Under the pieces are notes generated by a model. The model ran no database searches. It saw only the letters and a program-made list of their open reading frames with translations, and was not told where the DNA came from. The translations under genes and the position numbers were made by a program. A DNA stretch of 59,798 nt, the filler included. It is 5 parts of 5 records of this genome, joined end to end, with 100 filler letters (N's around TTAATTAATTAA, not from the genome) between each part and the next. Parts side by side here need not be neighbours in the genome. Positions count along the whole stretch, not along the records: positions 36,743 to 54,222 come from DRR723986_6644; 4 more parts are not named here. One strand, written 5' to 3'. Below, piece after piece: positions 11,192 through 54,222 of this stretch. Each line of letters begins with the position of its first letter. Positions within the stretch are counted from its first letter, which is position 1.

Positions 11192-11258
11192 CGTCTTTCT
11201 CAGGCCAGTCACCGCAACGTGATTCCTATGTGCGTGCTATTCAGGGCATTGTCTTTGA

Positions 11259-11618
11259 ATGAGATTAGCATTTTTGATTTGGCTGTTCAGCGCAACAGCC
11301 GGGATGAGCGCAGAGTGGGCCTTGCGTGCTGGGGATACACCGCTCAGTACAACCGAACTGCAAGACATGGCCGGTCGCACCTTGGTTTTTTATGATGACG
11401 GTCAATCCAAATATTCTGCGGGTGGCTCTTATTCTTATACCTATGCACCGGCGAATGGGGGCGGGACGGCGTTCGGCACTTATCGCATTGCCGAGGATGG
11501 CAGCATTTGCACAGCGTTTCAAAATGGTCTGACGCGCTGTGATCTGTTTGTGCGCAGTGGATCGCGTTTGGTGCTGATCAATGAAAAGGGCGAACGCTAT
11601 CCGGTTCGCCCTGACTGA
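11259..11618 (+). CDS. Hypothetical exported protein (DUF995-like beta-rich)
   Basis: Signal peptide; YSAGGSYSYTY..GTYRIAEDGSICTAFQNGLTRCD pattern. Confidence 0.7.
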   Translation: MRLAFLIWLFSATAGMSAEWALRAGDTPLSTTELQDMAGRTLVFYDDGQSKYSAGGSYSYTYAPANGGGTAFGTYRIAEDGSICTAFQNGLTRCDLFVRSGSRLVLINEKGERYPVRPD

Positions 11619-12788: not shown

Positions 12789-12812
12789 GTGAAAAATTCC
12801 GGAAAGAGTGAC

Positions 12813-36742: not shown

Positions 36743-36772
36743 GATTTGAACCTACGACCTTCAGGTTATGAG
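36743..36772 (-). repeat. att site: duplicated 3' half of tRNA-Met(CAT) starting at the anticodon loop
   Basis: Minus strand CTCATAACCTGAAGGTCGTAGGTTCAAATC; the sequence upstream of CTCATAA is not tRNA-like. Confidence 0.9.
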
Positions 36773-36902
36773 GCGCTCCGCTCCAAACCAAATAACTTTT
36801 CAATAACAGTATCTTATACAGATTTTCGCGACACAACGTCATTCACGTGTCGCACGGAACTGACGTAAACCGTTGCTATTCAAAAGCAACGTAACAGCGT
36901 TG

Positions 36903-38087
36903 CTACTGGATCAGCGGTGGTTTTGCAGGGGTACGCGGGCAGCCCTTTTTCCAATTTTTTGTATTCAACTTCTCGCGCCAATAGTCTGGACGACGCATGC
37001 CCGCCTTCATCAGCATGTTGTCAAGTTCATAGCCACGTATTTCCTTTTCGTGCGGATTGGGAAGCTTTATAGTCTCTCCGTTATCAATCTGGAAAAATTC
37101 ATGGTCGGTTCTGCGCGCAAGCGAACCTGCCAGATAGTTGGTTACGAAGCGTTTGAACTCGGAGCGGTCGGGGCGCTGGTATGGCGCCACCCTTGACGAA
37201 AATCGACGATCTTGCACGATGTACATTGGGCACGCGCCGCGCTCAGATGCCGGATATTTTCGCGAATTCAACGAAATATCCTGTGCAGGCATTAGGCCAA
37301 TGTTGTGAGCAAAGGGATCAACCGCCGCCATTTGGACTGCAACGACGTTCAGGCCCGAATCGACCGCCCCCGCTAACTGACGCTCCATCGCACGTCGGTC
37401 GCGTAGGTCTATTCGATACTTCGAGTAGGGCACGGGGCACGAATCCAAAAAGTCTGCAAGCATTCGGGTCGGGCGCGTGCCATCGCTTAGACGAATTTCA
37501 CGCAGCGTTCTGAAGAGGTAGTAATTGGCTAAACTCTCTTCGAAATCCAAAGGGGACATCGCAAAGGCTTGCCGCTGTTCGACATAATATTCGTATTTTT
37601 TTATCCGACTCCCCACAAAGGGGTCTGCTTCACGCGCCAAGGCCCACGCATCGATCCAAAAGTGATATCGCTCGTGCGAAATCAAAGTTCTCATCGCCAG
37701 TTGCTGCACCTCAGCGAAGGGTAATGATGGTTTGATATCCCTAAAATGAGCCGCGACGGCGGCAATCCCTGCATCAATCAGGAAGATGCCCCACCGACCA
37801 CGATACGGAGGTAAATCTTTGAAACGGAACGACTTGTAAAAAGCCAGCACATCGATGCCCGCCTCGCGCACGACTCTCCGACCGGCTTCGATATTTTCGG
37901 GATCTACATCGTCAATACCCAAGCCAAAGATTGTGTCACCCTCTTCGCGAACGCGCAGAAGTTCACCGCCTATTTCGTCCGGCTCCATAGGCATCGTCGT
38001 CGGGTTCAGGATACGTGGCGCACCGCGACCTGGATCGTCGGCGAGCCGTTCCAAGACAGGCGCAGCCACATCGAAAAAATCAGACAT
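36903..38087 (-). CDS. Hypothetical protein: HExxH gluzincin-like domain plus C-terminal HicA-like domain
   Basis: SHERYH...EESLAN; C-terminal RRTDHEFFQIDNGETIKLPNPHEKEIRGYELDNMLMKAGM. Confidence 0.65.
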   Translation of the reverse strand: MSDFFDVAAPVLERLADDPGRGAPRILNPTTMPMEPDEIGGELLRVREEGDTIFGLGIDDVDPENIEAGRRVVREAGIDVLAFYKSFRFKDLPPYRGRWGIFLIDAGIAAVAAHFRDIKPSLPFAEVQQLAMRTLISHERYHFWIDAWALAREADPFVGSRIKKYEYYVEQRQAFAMSPLDFEESLANYYLFRTLREIRLSDGTRPTRMLADFLDSCPVPYSKYRIDLRDRRAMERQLAGAVDSGLNVVAVQMAAVDPFAHNIGLMPAQDISLNSRKYPASERGACPMYIVQDRRFSSRVAPYQRPDRSEFKRFVTNYLAGSLARRTDHEFFQIDNGETIKLPNPHEKEIRGYELDNMLMKAGMRRPDYWREKLNTKNWKKGCPRTPAKPPLIQ

Positions 38088-38164
38088 CGCGTCCCCCAAA
38101 CTCGTCTACATAGAGCAGATCAAACGCGAAAACTTGCGAGTCGGCAATAACGCTGGCCCCAACC

Positions 38165-39268
38165 TCACCCCAGCAGCTTCGCCTCGACCTCGGCCATAGC
38201 GTTCTGGTGGTCCGGCGAAGGGAACAAATGACCGTAGCGTTCCATGGTCATCTGGATCGAGGAATGGCCCGCGAAGGTCATCACCTCTTTGATCGAGAAC
38301 CCCTGCTCAATCCACAGCGACACGGCGAAGTGGCGCAGGTCGTGCCAGCGGACTTTCACATCGGCGCCTGAGCAGAGCTTTCGGAACCGGTCCTGTGTTC
38401 GGGTGTGTTGAAGGATGCCACCGCGCGGGGCCGGGAACACCAGCCCGAGTTCGCTTTTGGGGCAACGCAGTTTCCAACGGCGCAGCGCGTTCAGCACCAT
38501 CGGCCCGGCCGGAATATCACGATAGCCTGCCCGCGATTTCGGCTCTCCCATCTGGTTGTAGGCGTCGGCGCGCTGGCGCACGTAGATGAAACCCTTCTCG
38601 AAATCCACGTCCTGCCAGCGCAGGCCGCGCATCTCCGACGCGCGCAGACCAGTCAGCGCTGAGACGATCAGTTGGGGTTTGAAATCCTCGTCGGCCGCCT
38701 CAATCAGCGCGCGGATCGTTTCCTTGGAAGGCACCGGCGCTTTGTAGTCGATGCGGCTGGACTTGATCACCCGCACGCCCTGCGCGGCATTGGTGAATAA
38801 CTGGCCGTTGTCGATGGCATGGTCGAGGAGCAACTTCAGCGTCGAGAGCGCACGGCGGGTCAAATGCTCGGACCGGCCGTTGACGAGCATCCGGTCGCGC
38901 AATTCGTTCACATGGCGCCGGGTCAGCTGAGTAATAAGCTTATCGCCGATGCCGATGTCGGGGGCGGTGATATGCAGGCGCACATAGTCGCTGTAGCCGC
39001 GCAGGGTGGACCGCTCCATCCGCCGCCCCGTCTTGCAACGCACTTCGCAATGATCGATCCACGCTTTTGCCGCATCGGCCACGGTGACGCTCTCGCTGTC
39101 CGCGAGGTAGGTGTTGTTAGCGACGAGTGAGCGGACCTTCACGAGGTACACGTCGGCATCCTTGCGGCGCGGGAACAACTTGGAACGCCGTTTGCCAGCT
39201 TGGTCGGTAAAATCCACCTGCCAGCGGACCAAGCCCGAGGGCAGCGTACGTTTGCGAATTGTGGCCAT
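38165..39268 (-). CDS. int: Tyrosine recombinase/phage integrase
   Basis: TGLRASE, KS, HDLRH, AGHSS, RYGH catalytic set; N-terminal arm-binding-like beta domain; GGAGGA RBS. Confidence 0.96.
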   Translation of the reverse strand: MATIRKRTLPSGLVRWQVDFTDQAGKRRSKLFPRRKDADVYLVKVRSLVANNTYLADSESVTVADAAKAWIDHCEVRCKTGRRMERSTLRGYSDYVRLHITAPDIGIGDKLITQLTRRHVNELRDRMLVNGRSEHLTRRALSTLKLLLDHAIDNGQLFTNAAQGVRVIKSSRIDYKAPVPSKETIRALIEAADEDFKPQLIVSALTGLRASEMRGLRWQDVDFEKGFIYVRQRADAYNQMGEPKSRAGYRDIPAGPMVLNALRRWKLRCPKSELGLVFPAPRGGILQHTRTQDRFRKLCSGADVKVRWHDLRHFAVSLWIEQGFSIKEVMTFAGHSSIQMTMERYGHLFPSPDHQNAMAEVEAKLLG

Positions 39269-39343
39269 GGGGTCCTCCAATCAGTCATCAGGCCCAGGTG
39301 CGCGAGGAAAATCAGATTTTGATTTACCGTCGCTCAAAAACCA

Positions 39344-39392
39344 TTGACAGGGTGTCAGTGGTCACATATTCATAGGTCTGACAGATTGTCAA
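39344..39392. promoter_or_regulatory. Divergent promoter/operator region with two TGACA-N3-TGTCA palindromes
   Basis: TGACAgggTGTCA at 39345-39357 and TGACAgatTGTCA at 39379-39391; each contains a TTGACA, on opposite strands. Confidence 0.65.
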
Positions 39393-39403
39393 AGGATAGC
39401 TCG

Positions 39404-39862
39404 ATGACACAACTCATTACCATTCAGCAACTCACCGATGCGCTGAATCTCACCCGTTATCAAGTCGACGCTTGGATCTCGCGGGGTTACTACAAACCGA
39501 AAAACGACGCCGAGAAGGGCAAGGCGCGCGACTTCACAATTAATGATGCCATAGCACTGGGGGTCATCGCGGCCTTCGTTCGGCTCGGGTTTCAAGCGAA
39601 AGACGTTGGGCCTCAAGTCAATTGTGGCGTCTACGGCTTCAAGGACGACCGCGCCCTCTTCGCTATCTGCGAAGGTCCAGTTCGCCTCACGAGTGAACCA
39701 AATGCGGCATACGTCGAACCTGATATGGCCGCCCCCTTCTCCAAGATCATACCTGCAAAACGCCTGCCCGAGTTGCTCGATGATCCCGAGATCACCTCGT
39801 TCGCCATCGTAGACTTGGATGAGATCGAGACCCGCATCAAGCGCACGCTGCCTGCCGCCTAA
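39404..39862 (+). CDS. MerR-like HTH regulator
   Basis: ITIQQLTDALNLTRYQVDAWISRGYYKP...KARDFTINDA wHTH pattern. Confidence 0.72.
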   Translation: MTQLITIQQLTDALNLTRYQVDAWISRGYYKPKNDAEKGKARDFTINDAIALGVIAAFVRLGFQAKDVGPQVNCGVYGFKDDRALFAICEGPVRLTSEPNAAYVEPDMAAPFSKIIPAKRLPELLDDPEITSFAIVDLDEIETRIKRTLPAA

Positions 39863-39885
39863 GCACCCTCTCAAGGAGAACCATC

Positions 39886-40131
39886 ATGAAAACGAGTTTG
39901 CGGGCTGGACCCGCCACGGAAGAGTCATGCCCAACGCTTGCCGAAGACTTGCTTCGCGGCGCTGAAGAAATCGCAATCTTCATGTTCGGCGACGTGAAGC
40001 ACCGCCGCAAGGTTTACTACCTCACTGGCGAAGCGCCGCGCGGCCTGCCGCACTTCAAGATGGGCTCCGTGATCTGTGCGCGCAAAAGCACGATCCGGGC
40101 TTGGATTGCCGAACAGGAGGGGCGTGCATGA
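39886..40131 (+). CDS. AlpA/excisionase-like small DNA-binding protein
   Basis: DLLRGAEEIA..RRKVYYL..LPHFKMGSVICARKSTIRAWI; AAGGAG RBS; satellite-typical position. Confidence 0.8.
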   Translation: MKTSLRAGPATEESCPTLAEDLLRGAEEIAIFMFGDVKHRRKVYYLTGEAPRGLPHFKMGSVICARKSTIRAWIAEQEGRA

Positions 40132-42719: not shown

Positions 42720-42736
42720 CGACGATTACCAAGGAT

Positions 42737-42904
42737 TCTGGTGGGTTTGGTGGATTTGTTTCGGGCGATATCTGTGTTTGTCAGAAAAACTGTCAGCGAC
42801 GTGGAGGATCCAGACACCTGACATCCTCCAACCCACATCACATGTTTTGACAGTTACAGGAAGCGGGGCAAAACTGATCCACCAAATCCACCAAACCCAC
42901 CAGA
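42737..42904. repeat. Candidate replication origin: opposed iteron arrays forming a 22-bp perfect inverted repeat
   Basis: TCTGGTGGGTTTGGTGGATTTG (42737-42758) and CAAATCCACCAAACCCACCAGA (42883-42904), built from 9-bp TGGTGGRTT units. Confidence 0.72.
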
Positions 42905-42976
42905 CAGAATGGCAATGGTTTGTAGCTGGCGTGACAGTTTGGAAGATTATCCGAAAACTTGTAACTGCCGCGCGGC

Positions 42977-43020
42977 GGTTCCTCCTGGGGGGATTTGTAT
43001 GCGGGGGGGCGCAGCGCATA
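42977..43020 (+). other. Candidate lambda-like cos site (cosQ-like + cosN-like)
   Basis: GGTTCCT at 42977-42983, then TATGCG-[GGGGGGCGCAG]-CGCATA dyad at 42998-43020, just upstream of terS. Confidence 0.62.
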
Positions 43021-43045
43021 AGCCCGCCAGCGTCAGGGGGCAGAA

Positions 43046-43564
43046 TTGACTAAACTCAACAGTTCAGAGTCCAAAACGGACTTCGCCACCCGCGTCGGCC
43101 TTACAAAGGGCCGCATCTCGCAGTTGATCACCAACGGCCTGCCTGTGCGGCCGGATGGGCAGATTGACGTGGCCGAGGGGCTGGCTTGGATCGAGGCCAA
43201 TCTCAATCCCTCGCGGCGCAACAAGGGCGGTGCGGCAGCCTCATTCAGCCCGTCGCGGGCTGGAACCACCTTGGCCGATGCCAAGCGGCTGCATGAAATC
43301 GTGAAAGTGCAACGCGCCAAGCTTGCCTTTGAAAAGGAGCAAGGGCTGTTGATCGACACGGCTGCCGCCACGCGCACCGTGTTTGCGCGCGCCCGTGCTG
43401 AACGCGACGCGCATATGGCTTGGGTGCAACGCAGCGCGCCCCTGCTGGCGGCAGAACTCGGCGCTGATCCTCGGGCGACCTTCGCCGCGCTCGACTGCAT
43501 GATGCGCGAGCATCTCGAACATTTGGCCGACATGCCGTTGGGGAGTTTTGACGATGGTGCCTGA
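43046..43564 (+). CDS. Putative terminase small subunit (Nu1-like wHTH)
   Basis: SKTDFATRVGLTKGRISQL..GLP HTH plus coiled coil; overlaps the terL start. Confidence 0.78.
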   Translation: MTKLNSSESKTDFATRVGLTKGRISQLITNGLPVRPDGQIDVAEGLAWIEANLNPSRRNKGGAAASFSPSRAGTTLADAKRLHEIVKVQRAKLAFEKEQGLLIDTAAATRTVFARARAERDAHMAWVQRSAPLLAAELGADPRATFAALDCMMREHLEHLADMPLGSFDDGA

Positions 43565-45374
43565 TATTGATCTTGCCTGGCGGCGCGGCATTCGACCGGA
43601 ACCGCCAATCCCGGTCTCGGACTGGGCTGACCGCAATCGCATCCTGCCGCCCACCTCGGCAGAACCGGGCCGCTGGCGCACGGACCGCACGCCCTATTTG
43701 CGCGAGGTGATGGATGCGCTCTCTACTGCCAGCCCCTACGAACGGGTGGTGCTGATGAAGGGGGCGCAAACTGGCGGCTCTGAAGCGGGGCTGAACTGGC
43801 TCGGCTATATCATTCAGAATGCTCCCGGCATTGCGATGCTGGTCATGCCTTCGCTTGATATGGTGCGGCGCAACACCACCGTGCGGATCGACCCGCTGAT
43901 CGAGGCGACCCCTGCCCTGCGCGATCTGGTGGCATCGCCGCGCTCACGCGATGCCGGGAACAGCCTGTTTCGCAAATCGTTCCCCGGCGGGCAGCTGGTA
44001 ATGACCGGCGCCAACTCTGCGGTGGGCCTGCGCTCGACGCCGGTGCGTTATCTCTTCATGGACGAGGTGGATGGCTATCCGGGCGATGCGGATGGTGAGG
44101 GCGATCCTGTCGATCTGGCGATCCAGCGCACGGCCACCTTTCGAGGGCGGCGCAAGATTTACATGGTCTCGACGCCCACCCTGAAGGGCTATTCCCGCAT
44201 CGAGGCGGCGTTCGTCCATAGTGACCAGCGGTATTTCCACGTGCCGTGTCTGCATTGCGGTGACATGGCCCCGATCACCTGGGCGCGTATCCGCTGGCCG
44301 AAGGGACAACGCGACGCCGCCTATCTGATCTGCGAGGCCTGCGGCGGCGTGCATTATGAACATGAAAAGCCCCGATTGCTCGCGACAGGGGAATGGCGCG
44401 CGACCGCGCAGGGGGAAGGTCGCACAGCCGGGTTCCATCTGTCTGCACTTTATTCGCCTTGGGAAACCTGGGCGGAAATTGCCACCGAGCATGGCCGCGT
44501 AAAAAAGGACCCGGCTCGCCTCCAGGTCTGGGTCAACACGAAGCTTGGCGAGTCCTGGGAAGATCAGGCAGGCGACACCGTGCCTGCAGACCCTCTGATG
44601 GACCGCCGTGAAAACTGGGGTGCGGAACTGCCTGCGGGCGTGGCTGTGTTGACCGCTGGCGTCGATGTGCAAGGCGACCGGCTGGAACTGCAGGTCATCG
44701 GCTGGGGCCGCGACGAGGAAGCTTGGGTGGTCGATTACCGCGTGATTTGGGGTGATCCCTCCGGGCCGCGCGTCTGGGCCGATCTCGATCTGGCGCTGCA
44801 TGCCACCTACGTCCACAGCCACAGGGGTGCTGAATTGTCGATCCGCGCGACGGCCATCGACACCGGCGGGCACCATACCAAGGCGGCCTACGAGTTCTGT
44901 CGCACACGGCTTGCGCGGCGCATCTGGGCGATCAAGGGCCGAGGTGGGCCGGGTATTCCGGTTTGGCCGCGTCGCCCGACACGTACCAACAAAGGCAAGA
45001 TCCCACTGTTCATCGTGGGCGTCGATGCGGTGAAGGATGCGATCTACTCTCGCTTGAAGCTGACCGAGCCCGGTCCCGGCGCCATCCACTTCCCCCGCCG
45101 CCTCGAAGCCGACTACTTCCGCCAGCTGACAGCCGAGCGCGTCGTCACCCGCTTCGAGCGCGGTCGTCCCATCCGCTCGTGGCAGCCCAAGCGCGACAGA
45201 GAACGCAACGAGGCCCTCGACACCTTCGTCTATGCCCACGCCGCCCTGCACGGGCTCATCAGCATGGGGTTAAGGCTGAATGAGGAGGCGGAAGGGGTGA
45301 CTGTCAGAAACAGCCGACTTCATCAGCGCGACACAACAAAGCAAAGCTTGATAAGGTCCCGATGGATGCGATAG
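43554..45374 (+). CDS. Phage terminase large subunit, lambda GpA family
   Basis: SAEPGRW..RTPYLRE, KGAQTGGSE, YLFMDEVD, STPT, CxxC..CxxC, AGVDVQ, IDTGG, RNEALD. Confidence 0.95.
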   Translation: MVPDIDLAWRRGIRPEPPIPVSDWADRNRILPPTSAEPGRWRTDRTPYLREVMDALSTASPYERVVLMKGAQTGGSEAGLNWLGYIIQNAPGIAMLVMPSLDMVRRNTTVRIDPLIEATPALRDLVASPRSRDAGNSLFRKSFPGGQLVMTGANSAVGLRSTPVRYLFMDEVDGYPGDADGEGDPVDLAIQRTATFRGRRKIYMVSTPTLKGYSRIEAAFVHSDQRYFHVPCLHCGDMAPITWARIRWPKGQRDAAYLICEACGGVHYEHEKPRLLATGEWRATAQGEGRTAGFHLSALYSPWETWAEIATEHGRVKKDPARLQVWVNTKLGESWEDQAGDTVPADPLMDRRENWGAELPAGVAVLTAGVDVQGDRLELQVIGWGRDEEAWVVDYRVIWGDPSGPRVWADLDLALHATYVHSHRGAELSIRATAIDTGGHHTKAAYEFCRTRLARRIWAIKGRGGPGIPVWPRRPTRTNKGKIPLFIVGVDAVKDAIYSRLKLTEPGPGAIHFPRRLEADYFRQLTAERVVTRFERGRPIRSWQPKRDRERNEALDTFVYAHAALHGLISMGLRLNEEAEGVTVRNSRLHQRDTTKQSLIRSRWMR

Positions 45375-45449
45375 TCCATATCTGGTACGGGAGCTCTGCC
45401 TGAGCACTCAATCTTTGAATCTCTAGCTAATAAGAACTGGCATCCACCT

Positions 45450-47174
45450 ATGCAGACCATGCAACGCACCATTTCGCTCCCAGTCGAAAATGGCTGCCAG
45501 TCTGCTGAGAAGAATCTTGGCTCTGTGTATACACCAGCCAGCTTAGCCGACTGGGTTGCACGAACTTTTATTGAGATGGCATCACTCCGGTCGAATGCAG
45601 TTGTTTGCGACCCCGCATGCGGTGATGGTGAACTATTGCGTGCCGTGCAAGCGAACCGACCGAGTATGACGCTGCTCGGAATCGACATCGATCCATCTGC
45701 TGTTGAGATTGCTTCAAGAAAGAAGGACGCGGGTCGATTTCTATTCAAGAATTGCGATGCTTTAGGCTCTCCGGATAGCTCCCGTATTCCTTCCTGGGCC
45801 TTACTGTTCGGAAAAAAGAATATTGATGGCGTGATCGCAAACCCGCCTTGGGGAGCTGACCTCAATGCATCGCGTCAAGAACTTACGGCGATTGGCTATA
45901 GCTTTGCGAAGGGTCAGTTTGACAGCTGGAACCTTTTTGTTGAGGCAACACTCAGTAATCTACGCCCATCTGGAACTGCTGCGTTCATTATTCCCGATTC
46001 TATCTTTTTGCCTGAGCACGCGCGTATGCGTGAGTTTCTGCACTCCAATGTTCAAATCGCTTTCATCGCACGACTTGGTGAAGGGTTCTTTCCAGAAATT
46101 TTCCGGGGCACCGCAATTGTGATTGTCAGAAAGTCTCCTCCGGAAGACGATCACCAAGTTGAGACGCTTCGCTTGAATCGAGAAGATCGGAGCGCGGTGC
46201 TTACAGGAAAGAAAACCTTAGACGAGATCAGGCAGGCAAAGGCACACCTCCTGCCCCAATCCAGATTTCAGAACGACTTATTTGGGCGTTGGGATATCGA
46301 CAGTACAATATCCGAAGAAGCTCAAATCCACGCTTACTCGTCTAGGCGTTCTGACTGGACGCAATGGCTATGCTCAGGGCGTGGAGTAGAGCTGTCAAAG
46401 TTTGGGAACGTGGATGTCTGCCCAGCTTGTGAGTTTTCGAGACCCGCTTCCAAAAAACAACAACTGACCTGCGCCAACTGCGGTCATACGTCTGGGTCAC
46501 TCGACTTTCGCAAGATGCAAATTGTAAACGACGAGCCGAGCAATTCAGATTCTTTTCCGTTTCTCGTTGGGGAAGATGTTGGTCGTTACTTTGCGTCGCC
46601 AAGTCGCTACATCGAGAAGTCGGTGCGCGGAATAAACTACAAGTCGCAAGATGTTTACAGCCGCCGCAGGCTTTTGATCAGAAAAACTGGAATTGGAATA
46701 AAGGCTGCCATCGTCAATCAGCCTAGCATGACAAATCAAGTTGTATTTCACTACTTTGAAAATCCCGCTTTGGAAGTGCCTCCATTCTTCCTTTCCTATT
46801 GTTTGGGCGTCTTGGGGTCGCGCACACTTCTAGCCTACCATCTCAGAACAAACGGCGACAACGAATGGCGATCACACCCCTATATAACTCAGAAAGTGAT
46901 TGCTGGTTTGCCCATCCCTCTGCCAGTTCAAGGCACTGAAAGTTGGAAGCAGGCCCAAGCAATTGCTGCTCTAGTAGACAAAGCGCTGGTCAAGGATGAA
47001 CTGACAATGAAACTTGATGCAAAAATCGAAGGGCTTGTCGCTGCGCAGTTTGGTTTTGACAATAACTCATATTCTTGGGTTGAACGCGTTCTCAGCCAAG
47101 CCGAGTCACTTGAACCGATACGTGCATTACAGTTGGACAGTCGTTTTTGCGTCATGCCGCAGTGGGCTGACTAA
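45450..47174 (+). CDS. Gamma-class N6-adenine DNA methyltransferase (TaqI/Eco57I-like) with Zn-ribbon insert
   Basis: GSVYTP (X), DPACGDG (I), NPPW (IV); CPAC..CANC; TaqI_C-like LLIRKTG...LGVLGS...LPIP. Confidence 0.9.
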   Translation: MQTMQRTISLPVENGCQSAEKNLGSVYTPASLADWVARTFIEMASLRSNAVVCDPACGDGELLRAVQANRPSMTLLGIDIDPSAVEIASRKKDAGRFLFKNCDALGSPDSSRIPSWALLFGKKNIDGVIANPPWGADLNASRQELTAIGYSFAKGQFDSWNLFVEATLSNLRPSGTAAFIIPDSIFLPEHARMREFLHSNVQIAFIARLGEGFFPEIFRGTAIVIVRKSPPEDDHQVETLRLNREDRSAVLTGKKTLDEIRQAKAHLLPQSRFQNDLFGRWDIDSTISEEAQIHAYSSRRSDWTQWLCSGRGVELSKFGNVDVCPACEFSRPASKKQQLTCANCGHTSGSLDFRKMQIVNDEPSNSDSFPFLVGEDVGRYFASPSRYIEKSVRGINYKSQDVYSRRRLLIRKTGIGIKAAIVNQPSMTNQVVFHYFENPALEVPPFFLSYCLGVLGSRTLLAYHLRTNGDNEWRSHPYITQKVIAGLPIPLPVQGTESWKQAQAIAALVDKALVKDELTMKLDAKIEGLVAAQFGFDNNSYSWVERVLSQAESLEPIRALQLDSRFCVMPQWAD

Positions 47175-48203
47175 ATGTCTTATCGCTACATCGGGAATAA
47201 ATCGCGGCTTCTTCGCCCTATTATTGATCGCATAGGCGGCATTGTGCAAAAAGGTGCTGTTGTCGCCGACCTTATGTGTGGAACTGCGAGTGTATCTGAA
47301 GCATTACGCGTTGCCGGCTATCGAGTAGTAGCTTCTGATATGATGTCGTATGCATTTCAACACGCTTGCATTCGGCTGAAACTTGACCGCCCCCCTACGT
47401 TCGACACTGTTTCAAAGGACGGCTACTTGGGGGTGCTAAAACACCTTGAGTCGCTCCCACGTACATCTGGGCATTTTTTCCGCGAGTACTCGCCTGAAGG
47501 CCAGCCTAACAACGGCGAACGACCGCGAATGTATTTTTCGCCGGAAAACGCCGCATCGATTGATGCAATTACACAACAAATCAATGAGTGGCGTTCGCTG
47601 GGAAAAATCACTGATCTAGAGAATTCGCTTCTTCGTCATGACTTGGTTCTGGCGGCAAATCGCGTAGCGAATATTGCTGGCACCTATGGACACTACCGGT
47701 CGACATGGAGCAACTCCTCACTTGCCCCACTCGCACTTCGACCGTCAACATTTCTGTGGGGCATATCTACAGATCATGATGTTTATCAGGGCCAAGCCGA
47801 GGATCTCGCTCAATCTATTTCCGCCGACCTCTGCTATATTGACCCTCCATATATGAAGCGACAGTATGCGGCCAACTATCACATTATTGAAACAATTGCC
47901 CGTGGCGACGCTCCTGAGGCTATTGGGGTAAGTGGACTGAGGCCGTGGCGTGACCAATATTCTGACTTTTGTTCAAAGCTTCGAGTACGTGACTCGTTCA
48001 GGAAAATTATTGGCGGAATGCAATGTCAAACCTTTCTTATTAGCTACAGCGAGGATGGGCTTCTTAGCAAAGAAGAACTGATGCAGCTTTTCTCAGAATT
48101 TGGGCGTGTAGACTTCGAGTGCCTTATACACCAAAGGTTCAAGAGCAATGTTGGAGGAGAAGGCGGAACGGTTGAGGAGTATCTATTCAAAATAACGAAA
48201 TAG
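47175..48203 (+). CDS. Alpha-class (D12) adenine DNA methyltransferase, M.NlaIII/M.FokI-like
   Basis: YIGNKSRL, DLMCGTASV, YIDPPY..RQYAANYH, ISYSEDGLL; start abuts the MTase1 stop (TAAATG). Confidence 0.92.
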   Translation: MSYRYIGNKSRLLRPIIDRIGGIVQKGAVVADLMCGTASVSEALRVAGYRVVASDMMSYAFQHACIRLKLDRPPTFDTVSKDGYLGVLKHLESLPRTSGHFFREYSPEGQPNNGERPRMYFSPENAASIDAITQQINEWRSLGKITDLENSLLRHDLVLAANRVANIAGTYGHYRSTWSNSSLAPLALRPSTFLWGISTDHDVYQGQAEDLAQSISADLCYIDPPYMKRQYAANYHIIETIARGDAPEAIGVSGLRPWRDQYSDFCSKLRVRDSFRKIIGGMQCQTFLISYSEDGLLSKEELMQLFSEFGRVDFECLIHQRFKSNVGGEGGTVEEYLFKITK

Positions 48204-48206
48204 CCC

Positions 48207-49373
48207 TCATTCTGTCCCAGTTATTGCGGCAACATGGTCAGGTCGCCATCGGATTACATGCGCTTCACCATTGATCTCGATTGGCAGTTCGTTACCCGAA
48301 ATCTTTGTAAGATCGAGACCTGTCACCTCTGCATAGTGCAACATACGGTGAATGTGAGCGCTTACGACAACCAGATTCGCAGGCGCATCGGCGCCGCCTT
48401 GGCCGAGCGGTATCAGATGGTGGACTTCGAGATATGGTTTTCCGTCAGACTTCTTAAAAACATACTTAGCTCCCGTGATCTGGCACTCGCCGTATAGATC
48501 TTTGAGTGCCTTTACTGCCTTCTGATTCCTTTCTCGGACTTTCATTACTATCTCTTTGACGGCCGGAGTTGCAGAACTGTAGTCCGCATCAAAAAGAGCG
48601 CTTGCTGCTTCCGCCTCGGTCATTTCTCGAAACTTTGGCTGCTTATTGGAAGTTGCATTCGGTGACGCCGTTCCAAAAGCAGGTACCGCAGTAGCAGGGC
48701 CAGTTGACAGCTTGCTGGAGGTCGAAGCACCAGAAGGCTTTGTATTCGGGGCGCTGACTGAAGCCTTTGAAGCGATGAATGGCCAATGCAAATTTGTCTC
48801 GTCAAAATCCAAAGCAGTCGCAAATCGGATAATCCCGTCGCCTTCAGCAAACAGTGGGTCAAGAACTGGAGGAAAGGCCCAAGACAATGGACGATCTTGT
48901 TCTCTCATCCATCCCGCCCAGTACGTACCGTCCGTCGCCCGAATGATAAAAACCACGAGACCCTTGATTAGCGGTGCGATTTGCGGATCAGCGGAACTTT
49001 CGAGCTGGCCCTTAGGACTCGGAAATCCAGTTTTTGCCGGGTGCCACGCATGAACTCTGTTAGACCTCCGGCTCGCTAACTTTTGCTCGCGAATGCTAAC
49101 GGTCGTGCCACGTCGCTGACTAATCTTGAGGGATTGCTCTAGACCTAGGCTTAGACTCTGAACTTTGAATGTCCACTGTGGAAAACTCTGAGCCATCAAC
49201 CTCGGAGTGATGCCGACAAAGAAATCGGACCAATCTGCTAACGAAACACCGCTGGTATCGACATCGATGTATGACTGACCGCCACCACCCTCTTCTGCGC
49301 CACGTTCCTTATAGATGTTGAAAAAATCCGCCGGTGTAATGCGTCGGAACACAAGCATAGATGCTTTTCTCAA
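48207..49373 (-). CDS. HNH endonuclease with N-terminal putative DNA-recognition domain
   Basis: ECQIT..F...GKPYLEVHHLIPLGQGGADAPANLVVVSAHIHRMLH; Ser/Thr/Pro/Ala linker; convergent with the MTases. Confidence 0.88.
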   Translation of the reverse strand: MRKASMLVFRRITPADFFNIYKERGAEEGGGGQSYIDVDTSGVSLADWSDFFVGITPRLMAQSFPQWTFKVQSLSLGLEQSLKISQRRGTTVSIREQKLASRRSNRVHAWHPAKTGFPSPKGQLESSADPQIAPLIKGLVVFIIRATDGTYWAGWMREQDRPLSWAFPPVLDPLFAEGDGIIRFATALDFDETNLHWPFIASKASVSAPNTKPSGASTSSKLSTGPATAVPAFGTASPNATSNKQPKFREMTEAEAASALFDADYSSATPAVKEIVMKVRERNQKAVKALKDLYGECQITGAKYVFKKSDGKPYLEVHHLIPLGQGGADAPANLVVVSAHIHRMLHYAEVTGLDLTKISGNELPIEINGEAHVIRWRPDHVAAITGTE

Positions 49374-49688
49374 TCGACCCTCACAATACTCAAGAGTTCA
49401 GTGGGTAACCGTCGTTGCGCTACCGGTTCGCGTTGAGGCTATCAGATCGGTAATGGTCTTCACAATGGTCGATAAGATGTCCGGCCCAACGGCCTGCTTC
49501 AACCCTGCCATGAAGAACTCTGTACGAGCGTCTCTTGTTCCATCGTCTCGTTTCCCGACTTGCTTCTCGTACGTTTGGCGCTGCGGTTGGTGGGCGAAGT
49601 TAGCAGGGGGAGTTGGATTACGGAGCTTTCCCAACCTTTCCCACCCGCTCTGATACCACTGTTTGAGCGGAAGTGAGAGTCTCCGCTT

Positions 49689-51101
49689 ATGCGGACACTC
49701 TTTCGAAAACTTCTGGGCCGGGGCGGAACCCGGTCCTTTGACGCGGCGGGCCAAGGGCGGCGCTGGGATCAGCCTCGCACGCTGGACAGCCTGAACACGG
49801 CGATTCTTGCGGGGGCCACGCCTGCCGCACGCAGGGCAGGCTGGTATGCGCGCAACAACCCTTGGGTCGCGGCGGCGCTGGATAGCCTCGTTGGCAACGT
49901 CGTCGGCGCCGGGATTAAGCCCCAGTCTACCCACCCCGACCGCGCGGTGCGCGAACGGCTGCAGGCGCTCTGGCTGCATTGGACCGATCAGGCCACCCCG
50001 GATGGGCTTGCTGATTTCTACGGCCTGCAATCGATGGCGGTGCGGGCCATGGTGGAAAGCGGCGAAAGCTTCGCCCGGTTGCGTATCAACGACACCGCCG
50101 ATGGCATCCCCCTTCACATTGAACTTCTGGATCGCGAGCAGGTCCCCACGGATTTGCATCGTGATATCGGCGGCGGGGCGCGGATACGCGCTGGCATCGA
50201 GTTCGACTCTGCCGGGCGCCGGATCGCCTATCGGGTGTCAACCGCCCGTCCGGGCGATCCCCTCGGGTCTTTCCGCATGAGCCCGATCCGCGTCCCCGCC
50301 GCCGATTGCCTTCACCTGTTCAAACCTCTGGTCGCAGGGCAGTTGCGCGGCATCACCTGGCTCGCGCCGGTCCTGCTCCGCCTCCATGAACTCGACCAAT
50401 TCGAGGATGCAACGCTGGTCAAAGCCAAGGTGGCGGCGCTGTTCACCGGCTTCATCACCGACCCCGATGGCACGGTAGGCGGCCTTTCCGGCGACAACCG
50501 CTCTGGCGTGCTCACCGTGGGCATGGAACCAGGCAGCCTCATTCCCCTACCCCCTGGCGCAGACATCCGGTTTTCCAACCCGACCGAGCACGATGCTTAT
50601 GCGCCCTTCGTAAAGAACCACCTGCGCGCCGTCGCGGCCGGGCTTGGCCTGCCTTACGAATTGGTTTCTGGCGACCTCGAGGGGGTGACCTATTCCTCGA
50701 TCCGCGCGGGGCTCGTGGAGTTCCGCCGCCGCGTTGAGCAGTTGCAGCACAACGTGGTCGTGCATCTGTTCTGCCGCCCGATCTGGGAACGCTTCGTGCG
50801 CCTCGCGGTCCTAACCGGTGATCTGCCTGCCCGCAATTTCGGCGCCGATCCCGCCGCCTATCTGGGATGCAGCTGGCTGCCGCCAAAGTTCGACTACGTC
50901 GATCCGATGAAGGATGTGCAGGCCGAGATCCTCGCCATCGACGCAGGGCTCAAATCCCGCAGCCAGGCGATTTCTGAGCGTGGCTACGATGCCGAACAGG
51001 TCGACGCCGAGATAGCGGCCGACAAAGAGCGCGCCGACGGGATGGGGCTCGGGTTCGGTCAAAACGCTGCCACGCAGCAGAAGGACATCCCCCATGGTTG
51101 A
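49689..51101 (+). CDS. Phage portal protein, lambda family
   Basis: RNNPWV..LVGNVVGAGIKP, ESGESF, GIEFD..GR, GQLRGI, LVSGDL..VTYSSIR, VDPMKD. Confidence 0.95.
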   Translation: MRTLFRKLLGRGGTRSFDAAGQGRRWDQPRTLDSLNTAILAGATPAARRAGWYARNNPWVAAALDSLVGNVVGAGIKPQSTHPDRAVRERLQALWLHWTDQATPDGLADFYGLQSMAVRAMVESGESFARLRINDTADGIPLHIELLDREQVPTDLHRDIGGGARIRAGIEFDSAGRRIAYRVSTARPGDPLGSFRMSPIRVPAADCLHLFKPLVAGQLRGITWLAPVLLRLHELDQFEDATLVKAKVAALFTGFITDPDGTVGGLSGDNRSGVLTVGMEPGSLIPLPPGADIRFSNPTEHDAYAPFVKNHLRAVAAGLGLPYELVSGDLEGVTYSSIRAGLVEFRRRVEQLQHNVVVHLFCRPIWERFVRLAVLTGDLPARNFGADPAAYLGCSWLPPKFDYVDPMKDVQAEILAIDAGLKSRSQAISERGYDAEQVDAEIAADKERADGMGLGFGQNAATQQKDIPHG

Positions 51102-52965
51102 GACAATTTCGCCGCAGCATGCTGGTATGGATAGCGGTCCTATTCACCTGCGTCGCGCCACCCTGCGCCCGCAATCGGTCAATCTGGCCGAGCGCAATGT
51201 CGAGGTAGTTTGGTCCACCGGTGCCCCCGTGCGCCGCCGCGACATGGGCGGCCCCTATGTAGAGCGCCTGAGCCTCGCCCCCGATGCGGTGGACCTCTCC
51301 CGCCTCGAGGGGGCCAGCGTTCTCGATGCCCACCGCCAATCCGCAGTGCGCGATGTGCTCGGCACCGTGCGCACCGCCACCGTCAATGGTCAACATGGAA
51401 CGGCCGTCTTGCAGTTTTCCGCGCGGCCGGAGGTGGAGCCCATCTGGCAAGATGTCGTGGCTGGCATCCTGCGCCACATTTCAGTCGGCTACTCGGTCGA
51501 GCGCTGGTCTGAGAGCACGGAGAACGGCGCGCGCGTGCTGACCGCCGTGCGCTGGACCCCTCACGAGATTTCCCTTGTTCCAACACCCGCCGATCCCGGC
51601 GCCCATATTCGCATGGAGACAGATATGACTGACACCACGCACCTCGTTTCCAATGAGAACGAGGTTGACCCTCAGCGCACCGTTCCCAACGGGAACGATG
51701 CACAAACCCGCGCCGCCGCAAATGCCGAAATCCGCGCCATCGGCAAAATCGCTGGCCTCGATCAGACCTGGGTCGACAGCCAGATTGACGCAAACGCCGA
51801 TCCCGACATGGCTCGACGCGCTGCTTTCGAAGCACTTGCGCGCCGCAGTTCGCCAGCCATCCGCACCGAACAGGTCCGTGTCGAGGTGGGCGAAAGCCAC
51901 GACGACCCGGCCCTGCGTGCGCGCCAGATGGGCGAAGCGCTCTACGCTCGGATCAATCCACGCCACCAACTGAGCGAGCCCGCGCGCCGCTACGCCTATG
52001 CAACCCCCGTGGACATGTCCAAGGACCTGCTGAGCCTGCGCGGCGAAAGCACCATGGGCCTTTCCCCTGCCAGCCTCGTCACACGCGCCCTGCACACGAC
52101 CTCGGACTTTCCGATCATCTTGGGCGACACGGTCGGCCGCCTGCTGCGCGACAGCTACCAGGCTGCACCTTCCGGCATTCGCCAGCTTGGCCGCCAAACC
52201 AGCGCACGGGATTTCCGCTCGGTGAACAAGATCATGCTGGGCGAAGCGCCGCTCCTCGAGAAGCTGAACGAACACGGCGAGATCAAGGCAGGCACCATGG
52301 CCGAAGCGCGCGAGGCCTATAAGGTTGAGACCTGGGCGCGGAAGATTGGCATCACCCGGCAGGTGCTGGTCAACGATGACCTTGGCGCCTTCTCGGACCT
52401 CGCCCGCCGGATGGGCCAAGCCGCCGCCGAGACCGAAGCTCGCATCCTTGTGAACTTGCTCGAGGCGAACTCTGGCAATGGGCCGAAGCTCTCGGACGGC
52501 AAGACGCTGTTTCACGCGGACCATGGCAACAAGGCGGGAACCGGGGCGGCGATTTCGGATGGCACGCTGTCGGCAGCACGGTTGGCGCTGCGCACCCAGA
52601 AGGGTATCGAGGACCGCACGATCCGCGTGACGCCGCGCTATCTGCTGGTGCCGCCTGCGCTTGAGACGGAAGCAGAGAAGTGGCTCGCCACCGTCTCGCC
52701 TGCGAAAGCGGCCGATGTGAACCCCTTTGCCGGGTCCCTCAGCCTCGTCGTGGAACCGCGCCTGACCTCGGCCGCCCGCTGGTATGTCACCGCCGACCCC
52801 GGCGAGATCGATGGCATGGAATTCGCCTATCTCTCGGGCAACGAAGGGCCGCAGGTCGAAAGCAAATCCGGCTGGGATGTCGATGGCGTCGAGATCAGGG
52901 TGATCCTGGATTTCGGGGCGGGGTTCCTCGACCACCGTGGCTGGTTCGCCAACGCGGGCGCATGA
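51094..52965 (+). CDS. Prohead protease / major capsid protein fusion
   Basis: N-terminal VLDAH..ISVGYSV..EISLVPTPAD protease; C-terminal HTTSDFP..ITRQVLVNDDLGAF..LLVPP capsid (gpT-like/HK97 fold). Confidence 0.92.
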   Translation: MVETISPQHAGMDSGPIHLRRATLRPQSVNLAERNVEVVWSTGAPVRRRDMGGPYVERLSLAPDAVDLSRLEGASVLDAHRQSAVRDVLGTVRTATVNGQHGTAVLQFSARPEVEPIWQDVVAGILRHISVGYSVERWSESTENGARVLTAVRWTPHEISLVPTPADPGAHIRMETDMTDTTHLVSNENEVDPQRTVPNGNDAQTRAAANAEIRAIGKIAGLDQTWVDSQIDANADPDMARRAAFEALARRSSPAIRTEQVRVEVGESHDDPALRARQMGEALYARINPRHQLSEPARRYAYATPVDMSKDLLSLRGESTMGLSPASLVTRALHTTSDFPIILGDTVGRLLRDSYQAAPSGIRQLGRQTSARDFRSVNKIMLGEAPLLEKLNEHGEIKAGTMAEAREAYKVETWARKIGITRQVLVNDDLGAFSDLARRMGQAAAETEARILVNLLEANSGNGPKLSDGKTLFHADHGNKAGTGAAISDGTLSAARLALRTQKGIEDRTIRVTPRYLLVPPALETEAEKWLATVSPAKAADVNPFAGSLSLVVEPRLTSAARWYVTADPGEIDGMEFAYLSGNEGPQVESKSGWDVDGVEIRVILDFGAGFLDHRGWFANAGA

Positions 52966-53180
52966 GCATGACGGATCTCGGTCAACTGACTGAGTGGCGG
53001 GATGCCCTGCTGGCAGCCCGCTACAAGGGGGTGCGCACGGTCGAATATGACGGCAAGCGCATCACCTACGCCACAGACGGCGAGATGGCTGCCGCCCTCG
53101 CCGATCTTGAACGGCGCATCACTGGCCTCGGCCCCAAGCGGGTCTCGGTCGTTCGTATTCAATCCAGCAAAGGGGTGTGA
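52962..53180 (+). CDS. Head completion / head-tail joining protein (gpW-like), 72 aa
   Basis: ATGA overlap with the capsid stop; AARYKGVRTVEYDGKRITYATDGEMAAALADLERRI. Confidence 0.85.
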   Translation: MSMTDLGQLTEWRDALLAARYKGVRTVEYDGKRITYATDGEMAAALADLERRITGLGPKRVSVVRIQSSKGV

Positions 53181-53183
53181 CCC

Positions 53184-53528
53184 ATGAAGACCTTTATCCA
53201 GAATGGTGACATAATCACCGTCCCCGCCCCCACTGGCGGTATCACATCCGGCGATGGCATGCTGGTGGGCAACCTCTTTGGTGTGGCCGCCACCACCGCC
53301 GCAGAAGGCGAACCCGCCGAAGTGGCCACCACCGGTGTCTACACGCTGCCCAAAGCCGCCAGCGCTGTCCTTGCCCTTGGCGTACGCGTCTCATGGGACA
53401 ACACAGCGAAGGTGGTCACAACGCCAGGCACCGGCCGCTATCCCATCGGGATCGCCGTTGAAGATGCGGGCAATGGCACAACAATGATTGCCGTGCGCCT
53501 CGATGGCATCGGGACTGCCGCCGCATGA
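53184..53528 (+). CDS. DUF2190 family capsid cement/decoration protein
   Basis: MKTFIQNGD.ITVPAP..SGD..VG.LFGVA...TGVYTLPKA...IG.A...VRL. Confidence 0.85.
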   Translation: MKTFIQNGDIITVPAPTGGITSGDGMLVGNLFGVAATTAAEGEPAEVATTGVYTLPKAASAVLALGVRVSWDNTAKVVTTPGTGRYPIGIAVEDAGNGTTMIAVRLDGIGTAAA

Positions 53529-53866
53529 TGGAGCGGGATGTTCACGCAATGCTAGCCAGCCTTACCCTCTTGGTGGAGAGCACCAAGGGGGCGGAACCTC
53601 TCGCCCTCCTCCACAGCTATGCGGCGGTGATGGCACTCTGTGCTGACCTGCGCACAGCAGCCGCAGAATACAACGGCACTTGGAATATCACGATGGTGAT
53701 CGGCGAGATTGAGAACCACATGGCCGCCGTCGCGGGGATATTCCCCACCTGGGATTTACCGCCAGATCAGCATCGTGGGCACGCACGCGCAGCGATCATC
53801 AAGATCGCCATGCCAACCTGCTTCGGAGTGCAATCCACGAACCCGGCCTTGCAGCGCAAATCGTAA
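53525..53866 (+). CDS. Hypothetical helical protein, last gene of the head operon
   Basis: ATGA translational coupling to DUF2190; followed by a hairpin. Confidence 0.65.
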   Translation: MMERDVHAMLASLTLLVESTKGAEPLALLHSYAAVMALCADLRTAAAEYNGTWNITMVIGEIENHMAAVAGIFPTWDLPPDQHRGHARAAIIKIAMPTCFGVQSTNPALQRKS

Positions 53867-53922
53867 GGTTGGCGCCTCCAACGTTACGAACAGCGGTGGT
53901 GCAAGCCACAACATCAGTCAGC

Positions 53923-53942
53923 ACACCCTCTTCGGAGGGTGT
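53923..53942 (+). terminator. UUCG hairpin after the head operon (terminator or part of a structured RNA)
   Basis: ACACCCTC-TTCG-GAGGGTGT; weak U tract. Confidence 0.55.
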
Positions 53943-54148
53943 TCTCGTCTGAAACACCCAACCCGCTTCGCCGGATGTTGGCGCCTGCAACATCCCTCAT
54001 TTTAGCGAGCCGACTGCGGAACGTCCCAAGAACATCCGCGCCTCGCCACGTCGCATTGGTGTTGCACGGAATAAACACGAGGTGTTGTAAGCCTTTGGAA
54101 TCTTTCGGAAACGTGTCGCACGGACTTGCAACACCGCAAGACAGGACA

Positions 54149-54169
54149 AAGCCGCCCGAAAGGCGGCTT
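54149..54169 (-). terminator. Element-supplied terminator downstream of the tRNA 3' end
   Basis: Minus strand AAGCCGCC-TTTCG-GGCGGCTT-TGT, about 27 nt after the CCA end. Confidence 0.75.
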
Positions 54170-54196
54170 AAGTCTTTGTAATAGCAAATATATTTT

Positions 54197-54222
54197 TGGT
54201 TGCGGGAGTAGGATTTGAACCT
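54197..54222 (-). tRNA. 3' end of tRNA-Met (initiator-type), truncated by the contig end; second att site
   Basis: Minus strand AGGTTCAAATCCTACTCCCGCAACCA (T-arm, acceptor, CCA); shares 11 nt with the left-end sequence. Confidence 0.88.

Follow-up and report, generated by a model that had tools for sequence, protein, structure and literature searches.

A tail-less island with its own lambda-type head genes at tRNA-fMet, probably a helper-dependent satellite of Alphaproteobacteria

Results

An att-bounded element with a lambda-type head module

We analysed a stretch of 59,798 nucleotides (the window), which consists of five contigs joined by spacers of 100 Ns, and describe here the 17,480-bp contig at positions 36743-54222 (DRR723986_6644), the whole of which is taken up by one integrated element. 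The element carries genes for an integrase, a replicase, a small and a large terminase subunit (TerS and TerL), a portal protein, a fused prohead protease and major capsid protein, a head-tail adaptor and a decoration protein, together with cargo genes (Table 1). It thus encodes a phage head without a tail, and we consider it likely that it is an intact representative of a widespread family: helper-dependent, capsid-forming satellites of Alphaproteobacteria.

Table 1. Features of the element, with positions counted along the whole window
Feature	Position	Strand	Evidence or remark
attL part	36743..36772	-	holds the final 30 nt of the att repeat (45 bp), from T-loop to anticodon loop of tRNA-fMet
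orf398	36903..38099	-	cargo in the slot between att and integrase; low G+C, 0.47-0.53
Tyrosine integrase	38165..39280	-	PF00589 8e-22; phrog_1 1e-67
Possible MerR-type regulator	39407..39862	+	MerR_1, E 1.1e-3, 19.4 bits (weak; below the 21.6-bit Pfam cut-off)
81-aa protein	39886..40131	+	phrog_18541 (unknown function) 8e-31; sits where an AlpA/excisionase-like regulator would be expected
Replicase, 872 aa	40101..42719	+	N-terminal PF09250 Prim-Pol and PF08707 PriCT-2; large C-terminal part
Probable replication origin	42739..42897	.	two facing arrays of GGTGG(G/A)TTT iterons between replicase and terS
Candidate cos/terminase site	42976..43045	.	70-nt non-coding block just upstream of terS
Small terminase TerS	43046..43564	+	phrog_57 2e-30
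Large terminase TerL, lambda GpA type	43548..45374	+	GpA_ATPase 1e-91; GpA_nuclease 1e-100; phrog_15
Cargo slot A (terL-portal)	45450..49373	.	restriction-modification genes; low G+C
N6 methyltransferase with TaqI_C	45450-47174	+	slot A
D12/Dam-type methyltransferase	47175-48203	+	slot A
HNH nuclease	48207-49373	-	slot A
Portal, lambda family	49689..51101	+	PF05136 (Phage_portal_2) 1e-100; phrog_21
Fused prohead protease and major capsid, 623 aa	51094..52965	+	phrog_4523 'major head and protease protein' 2.5e-227, full length
gpW-like head-tail adaptor Ad1, 72 aa	52962..53180	+	phrog_2545 'head-tail adaptor Ad1' 3.3e-19, positions 4-68 of 68
Decoration/cement protein DUF2190	53184..53528	+	PF09956 (Phage_cement_2) 2e-29; phrog_122
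113-aa helical protein (p113b, slot B)	53525..53866	+	phrog_32542 (unknown) 8e-49
Terminator-like hairpin	54149..54169	+	at the end of the head operon
attR part	54197..54222	-	holds the initial 26 nt of the att repeat (45 bp), with CCA end, acceptor arm and T arm of tRNA-fMet

Pfam and PHROG scans of the element matched no tail, tape-measure, holin or lysin family, and the space left unassigned is too small for tail or lysis genes. These scans agree with the original prediction, which was made from the letters of the sequence and had named a lambda GpA terminase, a lambda portal, a fused protease-capsid, gpW and DUF2190, and had recognised no tail, holin or endolysin gene. The fused protein additionally matches Phage_capsid_4 (PF25209, 3e-54) and, weakly, Peptidase_S78. 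The translational coupling that the original prediction noted for several core open reading frames (ORFs) also holds at five junctions from terS to the 113-aa ORF, where start and stop codons overlap or nearly abut (terS/terL, portal/capsid, capsid/gpW with ATGA, gpW/decoration, and decoration/orf113, again with ATGA).

Relatives are tail-less, conserved and constrained in length

The capsid protein has 134 relatives in contigs drawn from one genome per species, of which the best 80, at 70-94% identity, are referred to below as the 80 loci (individual loci carry L numbers); 80 of the 228 relatives in IMG/VR were taken as well. Inside the family, capsid identity is 70-95%. For the integrase, 129 relatives were found in species-representative genomes, and the 79 distinct loci taken show 62-98% identity, with a single one below 78%.

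Searching downstream of the head genes for a 45-nt att pattern, with mismatches allowed, located an att copy in 59 of the 80 loci, 53 of which also have a match to the decoration gene. In all 53 the distance from decoration gene to att is only 134-2951 bp. Among the 21 loci without an att copy, 20 have less than 3 kb of contig remaining; the exception, L065, is a relative of 70% identity with a different integrase and a tRNA-Lys 7.5 kb away, and its nine downstream ORFs, which hit a dehydrogenase and regulators, match no tail PHROG. The interval between decoration gene and att (slot B) contributed 91 ORFs with 25 Pfam families, none of them related to tails or lysis. Across the 80 loci, no relative has a tail module or room for one. 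The earlier statement that the missing genes are not a truncation artefact is upheld by the short distance at which the 53 relatives end, and the expectation that att-bounded relatives would consistently be tail-less was borne out by these boundaries, the 91 ORFs and L065 alike.

Pairwise Nei-Gojobori estimates of the ratio of nonsynonymous to synonymous substitution rates (dN/dS) gave medians of 0.107 for terL (694 of 703 pairs usable), 0.125 for the portal gene (1392 of 1485), 0.124 for the capsid gene (2126 of 2145) and 0.256 for the decoration gene (2333 of 2346). The head genes are under strong purifying selection, with values for terL, portal and capsid that lie well below 1, the outcome that the original prediction had set as a check.

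The length of the whole element was compared in 17 copies, namely the window's own and 16 single-contig relatives with both att copies. These relatives came from 40 merges by 50-mer seeds, from which 19 cross-contig merges were dropped; among the remaining 21 pairs, each on one contig, 16 were complete with att at both ends, and the other five ran off their contigs (L117-L001, L121-L029, L123-L004, L126-L076 and L140-L047). Total length averages 17,411 bp with a standard deviation (SD) of 686 bp and a range of 15,727-18,462 bp. The slot between terL and the portal gene varies from 2.2 to 6.4 kb (SD 1,226 bp). For the remainder of the element the SD is 955 bp, and the lengths of slot and remainder are strongly anticorrelated (r = -0.83). 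Were they independent, an SD of 1,555 bp would be expected for the totals, and a value as small as that observed arose in 3 of 100,000 shuffles. Such a pattern is what a capsid-capacity limit acting on the element's own DNA would give.

Packaging site, adaptor and neck

The 70-nt block just upstream of terS is conserved in all 14 aligned loci, with long invariant runs, whatever the replication module next to it, and contains the dyad TATGCG-N11-CGCATA at 42998-43020. Terminases of the GpA type are expected to package from cos sites, and we propose the block as a candidate terminase (cos) site. No HNH gene for packaging lies beside terS or terL; the only HNH gene of the element (48207-49373) belongs to the variable restriction-modification (R-M) cargo.

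Pfam gave no match for the adaptor, and profile comparison with lambda gpW was weak (1hyw, E 0.16; 2l6q, E 0.24). Its AlphaFold2 model folds into a helix, a beta-hairpin and a second helix (predicted local distance difference test score, pLDDT, 77), and gpW and siphophage neck adaptors were among the top ranks in Foldseek at non-significant scores. We regard the assignment as settled because of the match to phrog_2545. By tblastn the adaptor was matched in 76 of the 80 loci, in one of them (L078) with an internal stop. An ORF at 53002-53187, between the capsid and decoration genes, has an odd composition and was discarded; the true gene lies in another frame, at 52962-53180. Two further ORFs, at 49315-49653 and 53939-54181, look spurious.

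Downstream of the decoration gene we found no conserved gene that could encode a second neck protein of the head-closure (FII-like) kind, and slot B starts there. The 113-aa ORF occupying this position in the window was found by tblastn in only 12 of the 80 loci. Its four-helix AlphaFold2 model is of low confidence (pLDDT 63.6), and neither Foldseek nor Atlas returned anything meaningful or any neck-protein match.

Ends of the contig and integration at tRNA-fMet

There are exactly two copies of the repeat GATTTGAACCT, which start at 36743 and 54212 and form the first and last 11 bases of the contig; chance would give a mean of 0.02 matches per shuffle, and no shuffle in 100 had two copies or more. 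Both contig ends lie inside a 45-bp repeat that forms the 3' half of tRNA-Met, and the unit they delimit is 17,469 bp long, which bears out the earlier report of tRNA-Met att sequence and a shared repeat at both ends. Element-specific sequence begins at 36773. As the bases 3' of 36772 form no anticodon-stem pairing, the left end holds only the 3' half of the tRNA, and the right contig terminus likewise falls within the tRNA. Combined, the two ends make up the 45-bp segment that serves as the att direct repeat in relatives, and the repeat found on both sides of the 16 single-contig relatives matches both ends of the window's contig. ARAGORN called no tRNA in the contig because only tRNA halves are present, and a Rfam scan of it matched no RNA family.

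In contigs assembled from public sequencing runs (X numbers), the sequence diverges exactly after 36772 into the 5' half of the tRNA (CCTGACGAGCT...), in run X1 as a short, high-depth contig and in run X18 as a longer one. The contig in the window therefore broke inside sequence present elsewhere in the same genome, as would be expected from an att repeat at a multi-copy tRNA.

Relatives have a full tRNA-Met at the attR position, followed by 5S, 23S, tRNA-Ala, tRNA-Ile and 16S genes. ARAGORN places a minus-strand tRNA-Met(CAT) 3' of the decoration gene in 34 of the 80 loci, 7 of which also have tRNA-Ala and tRNA-Ile a few kb further on, and in L011 the Rfam scan gives the complete run of tRNA, 5S, 23S, tRNA, tRNA and 16S, on the minus strand throughout. 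This series shows the target to be the tRNA at the 3' end of a ribosomal RNA (rrn) operon, and a C1:A72 mismatch identifies the att tRNA as the initiator type, tRNA-fMet. In loci with a readable flank, integration is at the tRNA-fMet that closes the rrn operon. The methionine identity given in the original prediction stands, with the correction that the tRNA is the initiator type, at an rrn operon, and present in the contig as halves only. On the left, relatives end in a perfect or imperfect copy of the 45-bp repeat about 0.8-1.5 kb past the integrase gene.

Some elements end at a tRNA half-site instead of a full tRNA (L031 at about 14062, L045 at about 12874, L046 at about 13154 and L048 at about 12875, as well as L006, L009, L030, L043, L050 and L052). 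In the first four of these a different plus-strand integrase gene, 25-27% identical, follows about 2.5-4.5 kb beyond the element's end, an arrangement resembling tandem arrays in which unrelated islands share one tRNA-fMet.

Integrase, regulators and replication module

The order of genes given in the original prediction was confirmed, including the replication genes in the left half. Of its regulators, the AlpA-like one is an assignment by position and the MerR-like one a weak match. The 81-aa protein in the former place has no Pfam match at E<=1, and its gene is kept beside the replicase gene in relatives. The replicase matches phrog_29234 over its full length with 1158 bits.

The layout of facing iterons downstream of the replicase gene recurs in all five relatives checked. 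When the comparison was confined to capsid loci whose sequence upstream of terS spans 500 nt or more, the pair of arrays occurred in 11 of 12 loci with this replicase versus 1 of 26 without it, and in that one exception, L024, the replicase lies just beyond the edge of the locus. Because the iterons co-vary with the replicase, they belong to the replication module and are probably its origin. The origin placed here by the original prediction therefore counts as probable, while its cos site keeps candidate status on the strength of conservation. An ORF at 42712-43053 looks spurious.

Only 36 relatives of this replicase type were found in genomes, compared with the 134 of the capsid and 129 of the integrase, which shows that replication modules are exchanged. 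The closest relative, L001 (capsid 94%, integrase 98%), has neither this Prim-Pol replicase nor the iterons, so that modules are swapped even between near-identical elements.

At the far left, orf398 matched neither Pfam nor PHROG; its nearest Atlas clusters carry HicA_toxin on 14-41% of their members (score 0.96), which we take as a lead only.

Two cargo slots

Across 44 loci the junction between terL and portal (slot A) measures from 91 bp (two loci) up to 7.6 kb. We scanned 122 ORFs from slot A and 91 from slot B, after leaving out 4 of 126 and 10 of 101, respectively, that ran off the extracted region. R-M genes dominate slot A, with N6_Mtase in 12 ORFs, N6_N4_Mtase in 10, Eco57I in 6 and DNA_methylase and ResIII in 5 each, accompanied by Type ISP, MmeI, EcoRI, EcoRII and PstI-type enzymes; PADLOC models of type I, II and III methyltransferases match here, and HNH_2 occurs in 2 of the 122. 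The families in slot B include ThsB-TIR, Mrr, AAA_21/DUF4435, Nmad2/3 and ParA-like ATPases.

Many slot B genes lie on the minus strand, co-oriented with the rrn operon and tRNA-fMet (for example L003:12376-13989, L005:12371-13909, L007:12460-13962 and L017:12374-13894), and read-through transcription from the rrn operon could drive their expression. In the metatranscriptome run X18, contigs cover 45542-48761, that is methyltransferase and HNH cargo, and the tRNA part, with all nine pieces at least 99% alike. This coverage is a weak hint that R-M cargo is expressed in nature, with DNA carry-over or the R-M genes of another organism as possible sources, and the uncovered remainder of the element is no evidence of silence. 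In L013, the element's capsid gene is immediately followed by a second, distant capsid-portal pair (29-33% identity; 12112-14268) that is inverted and may belong to another inserted phage-like element.

Hosts and spread of the family

Going by the names on their records, the hosts are mostly Rhodobacterales, together with Hyphomicrobiales (Pararhizobium, Pannonibacter and a Mesorhizobium metagenome-assembled genome, MAG), Magnetospirillum-type bacteria, Zavarzinia, Hyphomonas and Sphingomonadales MAGs. Four loci labelled as other phyla (L067, L079, L163 and L071) are short MAG contigs or doubtfully labelled, and we read them as binning or labelling errors. At the DNA level, the capsid genes of Zavarzinia marina and a Roseovarius are 92.7% identical, and that of the Mesorhizobium MAG is about 92% identical to copies from Rhodobacterales. 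These genes are far closer than the hosts themselves, which indicates movement of the element between orders. Three copies (L045, L046 and L074) share one MAG contig, and several draft genomes have two.

Among public sequencing runs, 17 contain at least half of the sampled words from the window's variant, and the 19 runs with matches, which come from 13 studies, sampled sea, estuary, plastic, algae and rhizosphere; three runs may be the source. In run X1 a single contig of 17,495 nt spans the entire element.

Two copies are damaged. L078, on a scaffold of Silicibacter lacuscaerulensis, has a stop in the adaptor gene (11062-11268) and a capsid match from residue 271 only, and is decayed. L071, on a 1.2-Mb contig labelled Oceanobacillus whose label or assembly is doubtful, is frameshifted, with terS in two pieces and a capsid match from 10377.

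Discussion

Comparison with known satellites and phages

Phage-inducible chromosomal islands that form their own capsids (cf-PICIs, prototype EcCIEDL933) resemble the family described here in being att-bounded, about 15 kb in size and equipped with defence cargo, and in a left half that runs from int through a regulator (putative in our family) to the replicase. Both encode their own TerS, TerL, portal, protease, capsid and adaptor, lack tail and lysis genes, and have capsids and terminases far from those of phages. As set out in the available portions of the two reports, the cf-PICI core has eleven components, combining int-alpA-rep with capsid, protease, portal and head-tail connectors and an hnh-terS-terL packaging module, and at least three independent origins are reported for cf-PICIs, whose hosts are Proteobacteria (Enterobacteriaceae, Pasteurellaceae, Morganellaceae and others) and Firmicutes (10.1101/2022.09.08.507074; PMC10085698). 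That described cf-PICIs use a packaging HNH, as the original prediction had stated, agrees with this module. The capsid-forming satellites characterised by experiment have proteobacterial hosts, E. coli among them, or hosts in Firmicutes, and package in an HNH-dependent manner (10.1101/2022.09.08.507074), and the word 'Alphaproteobacteria' occurs in neither main text (10.1101/2022.09.08.507074; PMC10085698).

According to these descriptions, the present family is set apart from cf-PICIs by its GpA terminase, lambda portal, fused protease-capsid and DUF2190, and it also differs in having no packaging HNH, a single neck protein, the order terS-terL-[cargo]-portal-capsid-adaptor and alphaproteobacterial hosts. 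The cfPICI model of SatelliteFinder asks for at least 9 of the 11 components (PMC10085698). By function we count seven in the element (int, replicase, terS, terL, portal, fused capsid-protease and adaptor), with the regulator doubtful and HNH and connector absent. The combination of a missing packaging HNH, a missing second neck protein and a lambda-type terminase and portal suggests a further lineage outside the described cf-PICI groups.

The closest phage capsids among 50,697 phage records, those of Pseudomonas phage LPPA33 and RcKemmy-type Rhodobacter phages, are at most 37% identical. RcKemmy (MW677517.1) and LPPA33 share the families of the head module in nearly the same order, with identities to RcKemmy of 29% for TerS, 44% for the GpA TerL, 34% for the portal, 35% for the capsid-protease fusion and 37% for the DUF2190 homologue. 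RcKemmy-type phages, however, are about 41 kb long, and their gpW-like gene lies at the terL-portal junction. Past the DUF2190 homologue, where the element stops, they have a gene for head-tail attachment and a full tail operon with tail tube, chaperones and tape measure. Judged from this gene order, the family's adaptor gene has moved behind the capsid gene, and its terL-portal junction has become a cargo slot. With the head and neck of lambda itself (GpA, the gpB portal and gpW; 1hyw, 8k38) the element has GpA_ATPase/GpA_nuclease, Phage_portal_2 and a gpW-like adaptor in common; it lacks gpFII, tail and lysis genes, its protease and capsid are fused, and its sequence match to gpW is the weak one given above.

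Classical PICIs and P4-like satellites resemble the element in integrating at tRNA or att sites, in the layout of integrase, small regulator (putative in the element) and primase-replicase, and in their defence hotspots. They remodel or reuse helper capsids and have no portal, capsid or TerL of their own, whereas the element has all three, and the PICI model forbids portal and head-tail components (PMC10085698). The marine virion-encapsidated integrative mobile elements (VEIMEs) encode no capsid genes, unlike the family here. Gene transfer agents (GTAs) of the RcGTA type are vertically inherited clusters of head plus tail genes that have no integrase, att or replicase and package random host DNA, in contrast to an element that has an integrase, att and a replicase, no tails, near-identity across orders and a constraint on its own length. 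A temperate tailed prophage would carry tail and lysis genes within its att-bounded unit, and the element carries neither. It is neither a classical PICI nor P4-like, neither a GTA nor a prophage remnant. Literature searches, whose scope left supplementary host lists outside, found no description of the family, which is large and tightly conserved, and apparently undescribed.

Weighing the alternatives

Loss of tail and lysis genes from a prophage would account for a gene content that is a subset of that of a temperate siphophage such as RcKemmy, and for the few copies with stops or frameshifts. Against such decay stand the tail-less boundary in every one of the 53 measured relatives, a dN/dS of about 0.12, the uniform size, and the fact that no relative has tails and that the nearest phages reach at most 37% identity. 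We therefore regard it as refuted for the family and as highly improbable for this copy, and the original prediction of a satellite rather than a decayed prophage is sustained by the tail-less relatives, the dN/dS of 0.11-0.13 and the distance from known phages. Slots filled with R-M and defence genes (of 122 ORFs, 12 have N6_Mtase and 10 have N6_N4_Mtase, besides ResIII, EcoRI, EcoRII, MmeI, ThsB_TIR and Mrr), and the fact that the helper is not known, would also fit a defence island, in which the head genes mainly interfere with infecting phages through decoy capsids or terminase competition and transfer in the element's own capsids is rare or absent. This is unlikely in our judgement: total length is kept near 17.5 kb by compensation between regions, which is to be expected only where a capsid has to hold the DNA of the element itself, and the conserved block upstream of terS and the near-identical head DNA across bacterial orders also speak against it.

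A somewhat smaller chance still attaches to a domesticated GTA-like particle producer, or to a satellite that uses the tails and lysis genes of a host RcGTA-type cluster. GTAs are distributed among Alphaproteobacteria in a way that overlaps the Rhodobacterales and Hyphomicrobiales in which the family is found, among other hosts, and the GTA marker PF13547 was matched in three of five carrier genomes tested. The two others, Magnetospirillum-type draft genomes that each carry two copies of the element, gave no match to the marker, and for this reason we retain help from a GTA only as an alternative of low probability. Integrase, att, an own replicase, multiple copies per genome and near-identity across orders are moreover not traits of GTAs, the length constraint points to self-packaging, and portal and adaptor are lambda-type.

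Several points weigh against the capsid-forming satellite that we favour. Excision, particles and a helper are predicted here from the genes, and the adaptor's sole phage match is Acidithiobacillus phage AcaML1 (45%), which does not identify a helper. Logan contigs of runs X1, X5, X8 and X18 show no joint of a circular form, although assembled contigs are uninformative either way. An FII-like head-closure protein is absent, so that the stability of filled heads is assumed by analogy with lambda. The cos site is assigned from conservation, both regulators are weakly assigned (MerR_1 below the cut-off, the 81-aa protein by position), the length test is uncorrected for the relatedness of the 17 copies, and L078 and L071 show that some copies are decayed.

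A possible life cycle and its implications

If the satellite reading is right, the element most likely relies for its spread on tails taken from other phages. Upon induction it would excise and replicate from the iteron origin; its GpA-type terminase would cut a cos-type site just upstream of terS, and unit-length DNA of about 17.5 kb would fill small capsids assembled from proteins that the element itself encodes. Ad1 would then cap the filled heads, a co-resident helper siphophage would supply the head-closure protein and tail, and the helper's lysis would release the particles. The one indirect line of support for transfer of this kind is the length constraint. RcKemmy-type Rhodobacter phages, with the same head and neck layout, would be a plausible helper class.

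A bolder proposal, which we offer tentatively and hold to be rather less probable than its negation, is that the family constitutes a fourth, independently evolved capsid-forming lineage, the first for Alphaproteobacteria, whose minimal neck of portal and Ad1 would allow small, cos-packaged heads to be completed with the closure protein and tails of more than one kind of helper, unrelated to each other: various siphophages and perhaps agents of the RcGTA type. If true, the minimal neck would explain the near-identical copies across orders, and the family would act as a cross-order shuttle for R-M and defence genes at rrn-linked tRNA-fMet sites.

The family would show that the strategy of stealing only the tail has also evolved on a lambda-type head, and in a host class of great environmental importance that includes roseobacters, Paracoccus, rhizobia and magnetospirilla. 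With a different R-M or defence set in nearly every copy, the family may rank among the major routes by which defence genes are exchanged. Since the element ends at the tRNA-fMet of an rrn operon, it sits where assemblies break, which may explain why such elements were overlooked or annotated as incomplete prophages. Type strains that carry it include Fuscovulum blasticum DSM 2131, Pannonibacter indicus DSM 23407 and Ruegeria intermedia DSM 29341; Paracoccus aminovorans HPD-2 and Zavarzinia marina are further carriers. Elsewhere in the window, on a separate contig, ARAGORN calls a tRNA-Asp at 3016-3093 with its anticodon written 'atc', which would be unusual.

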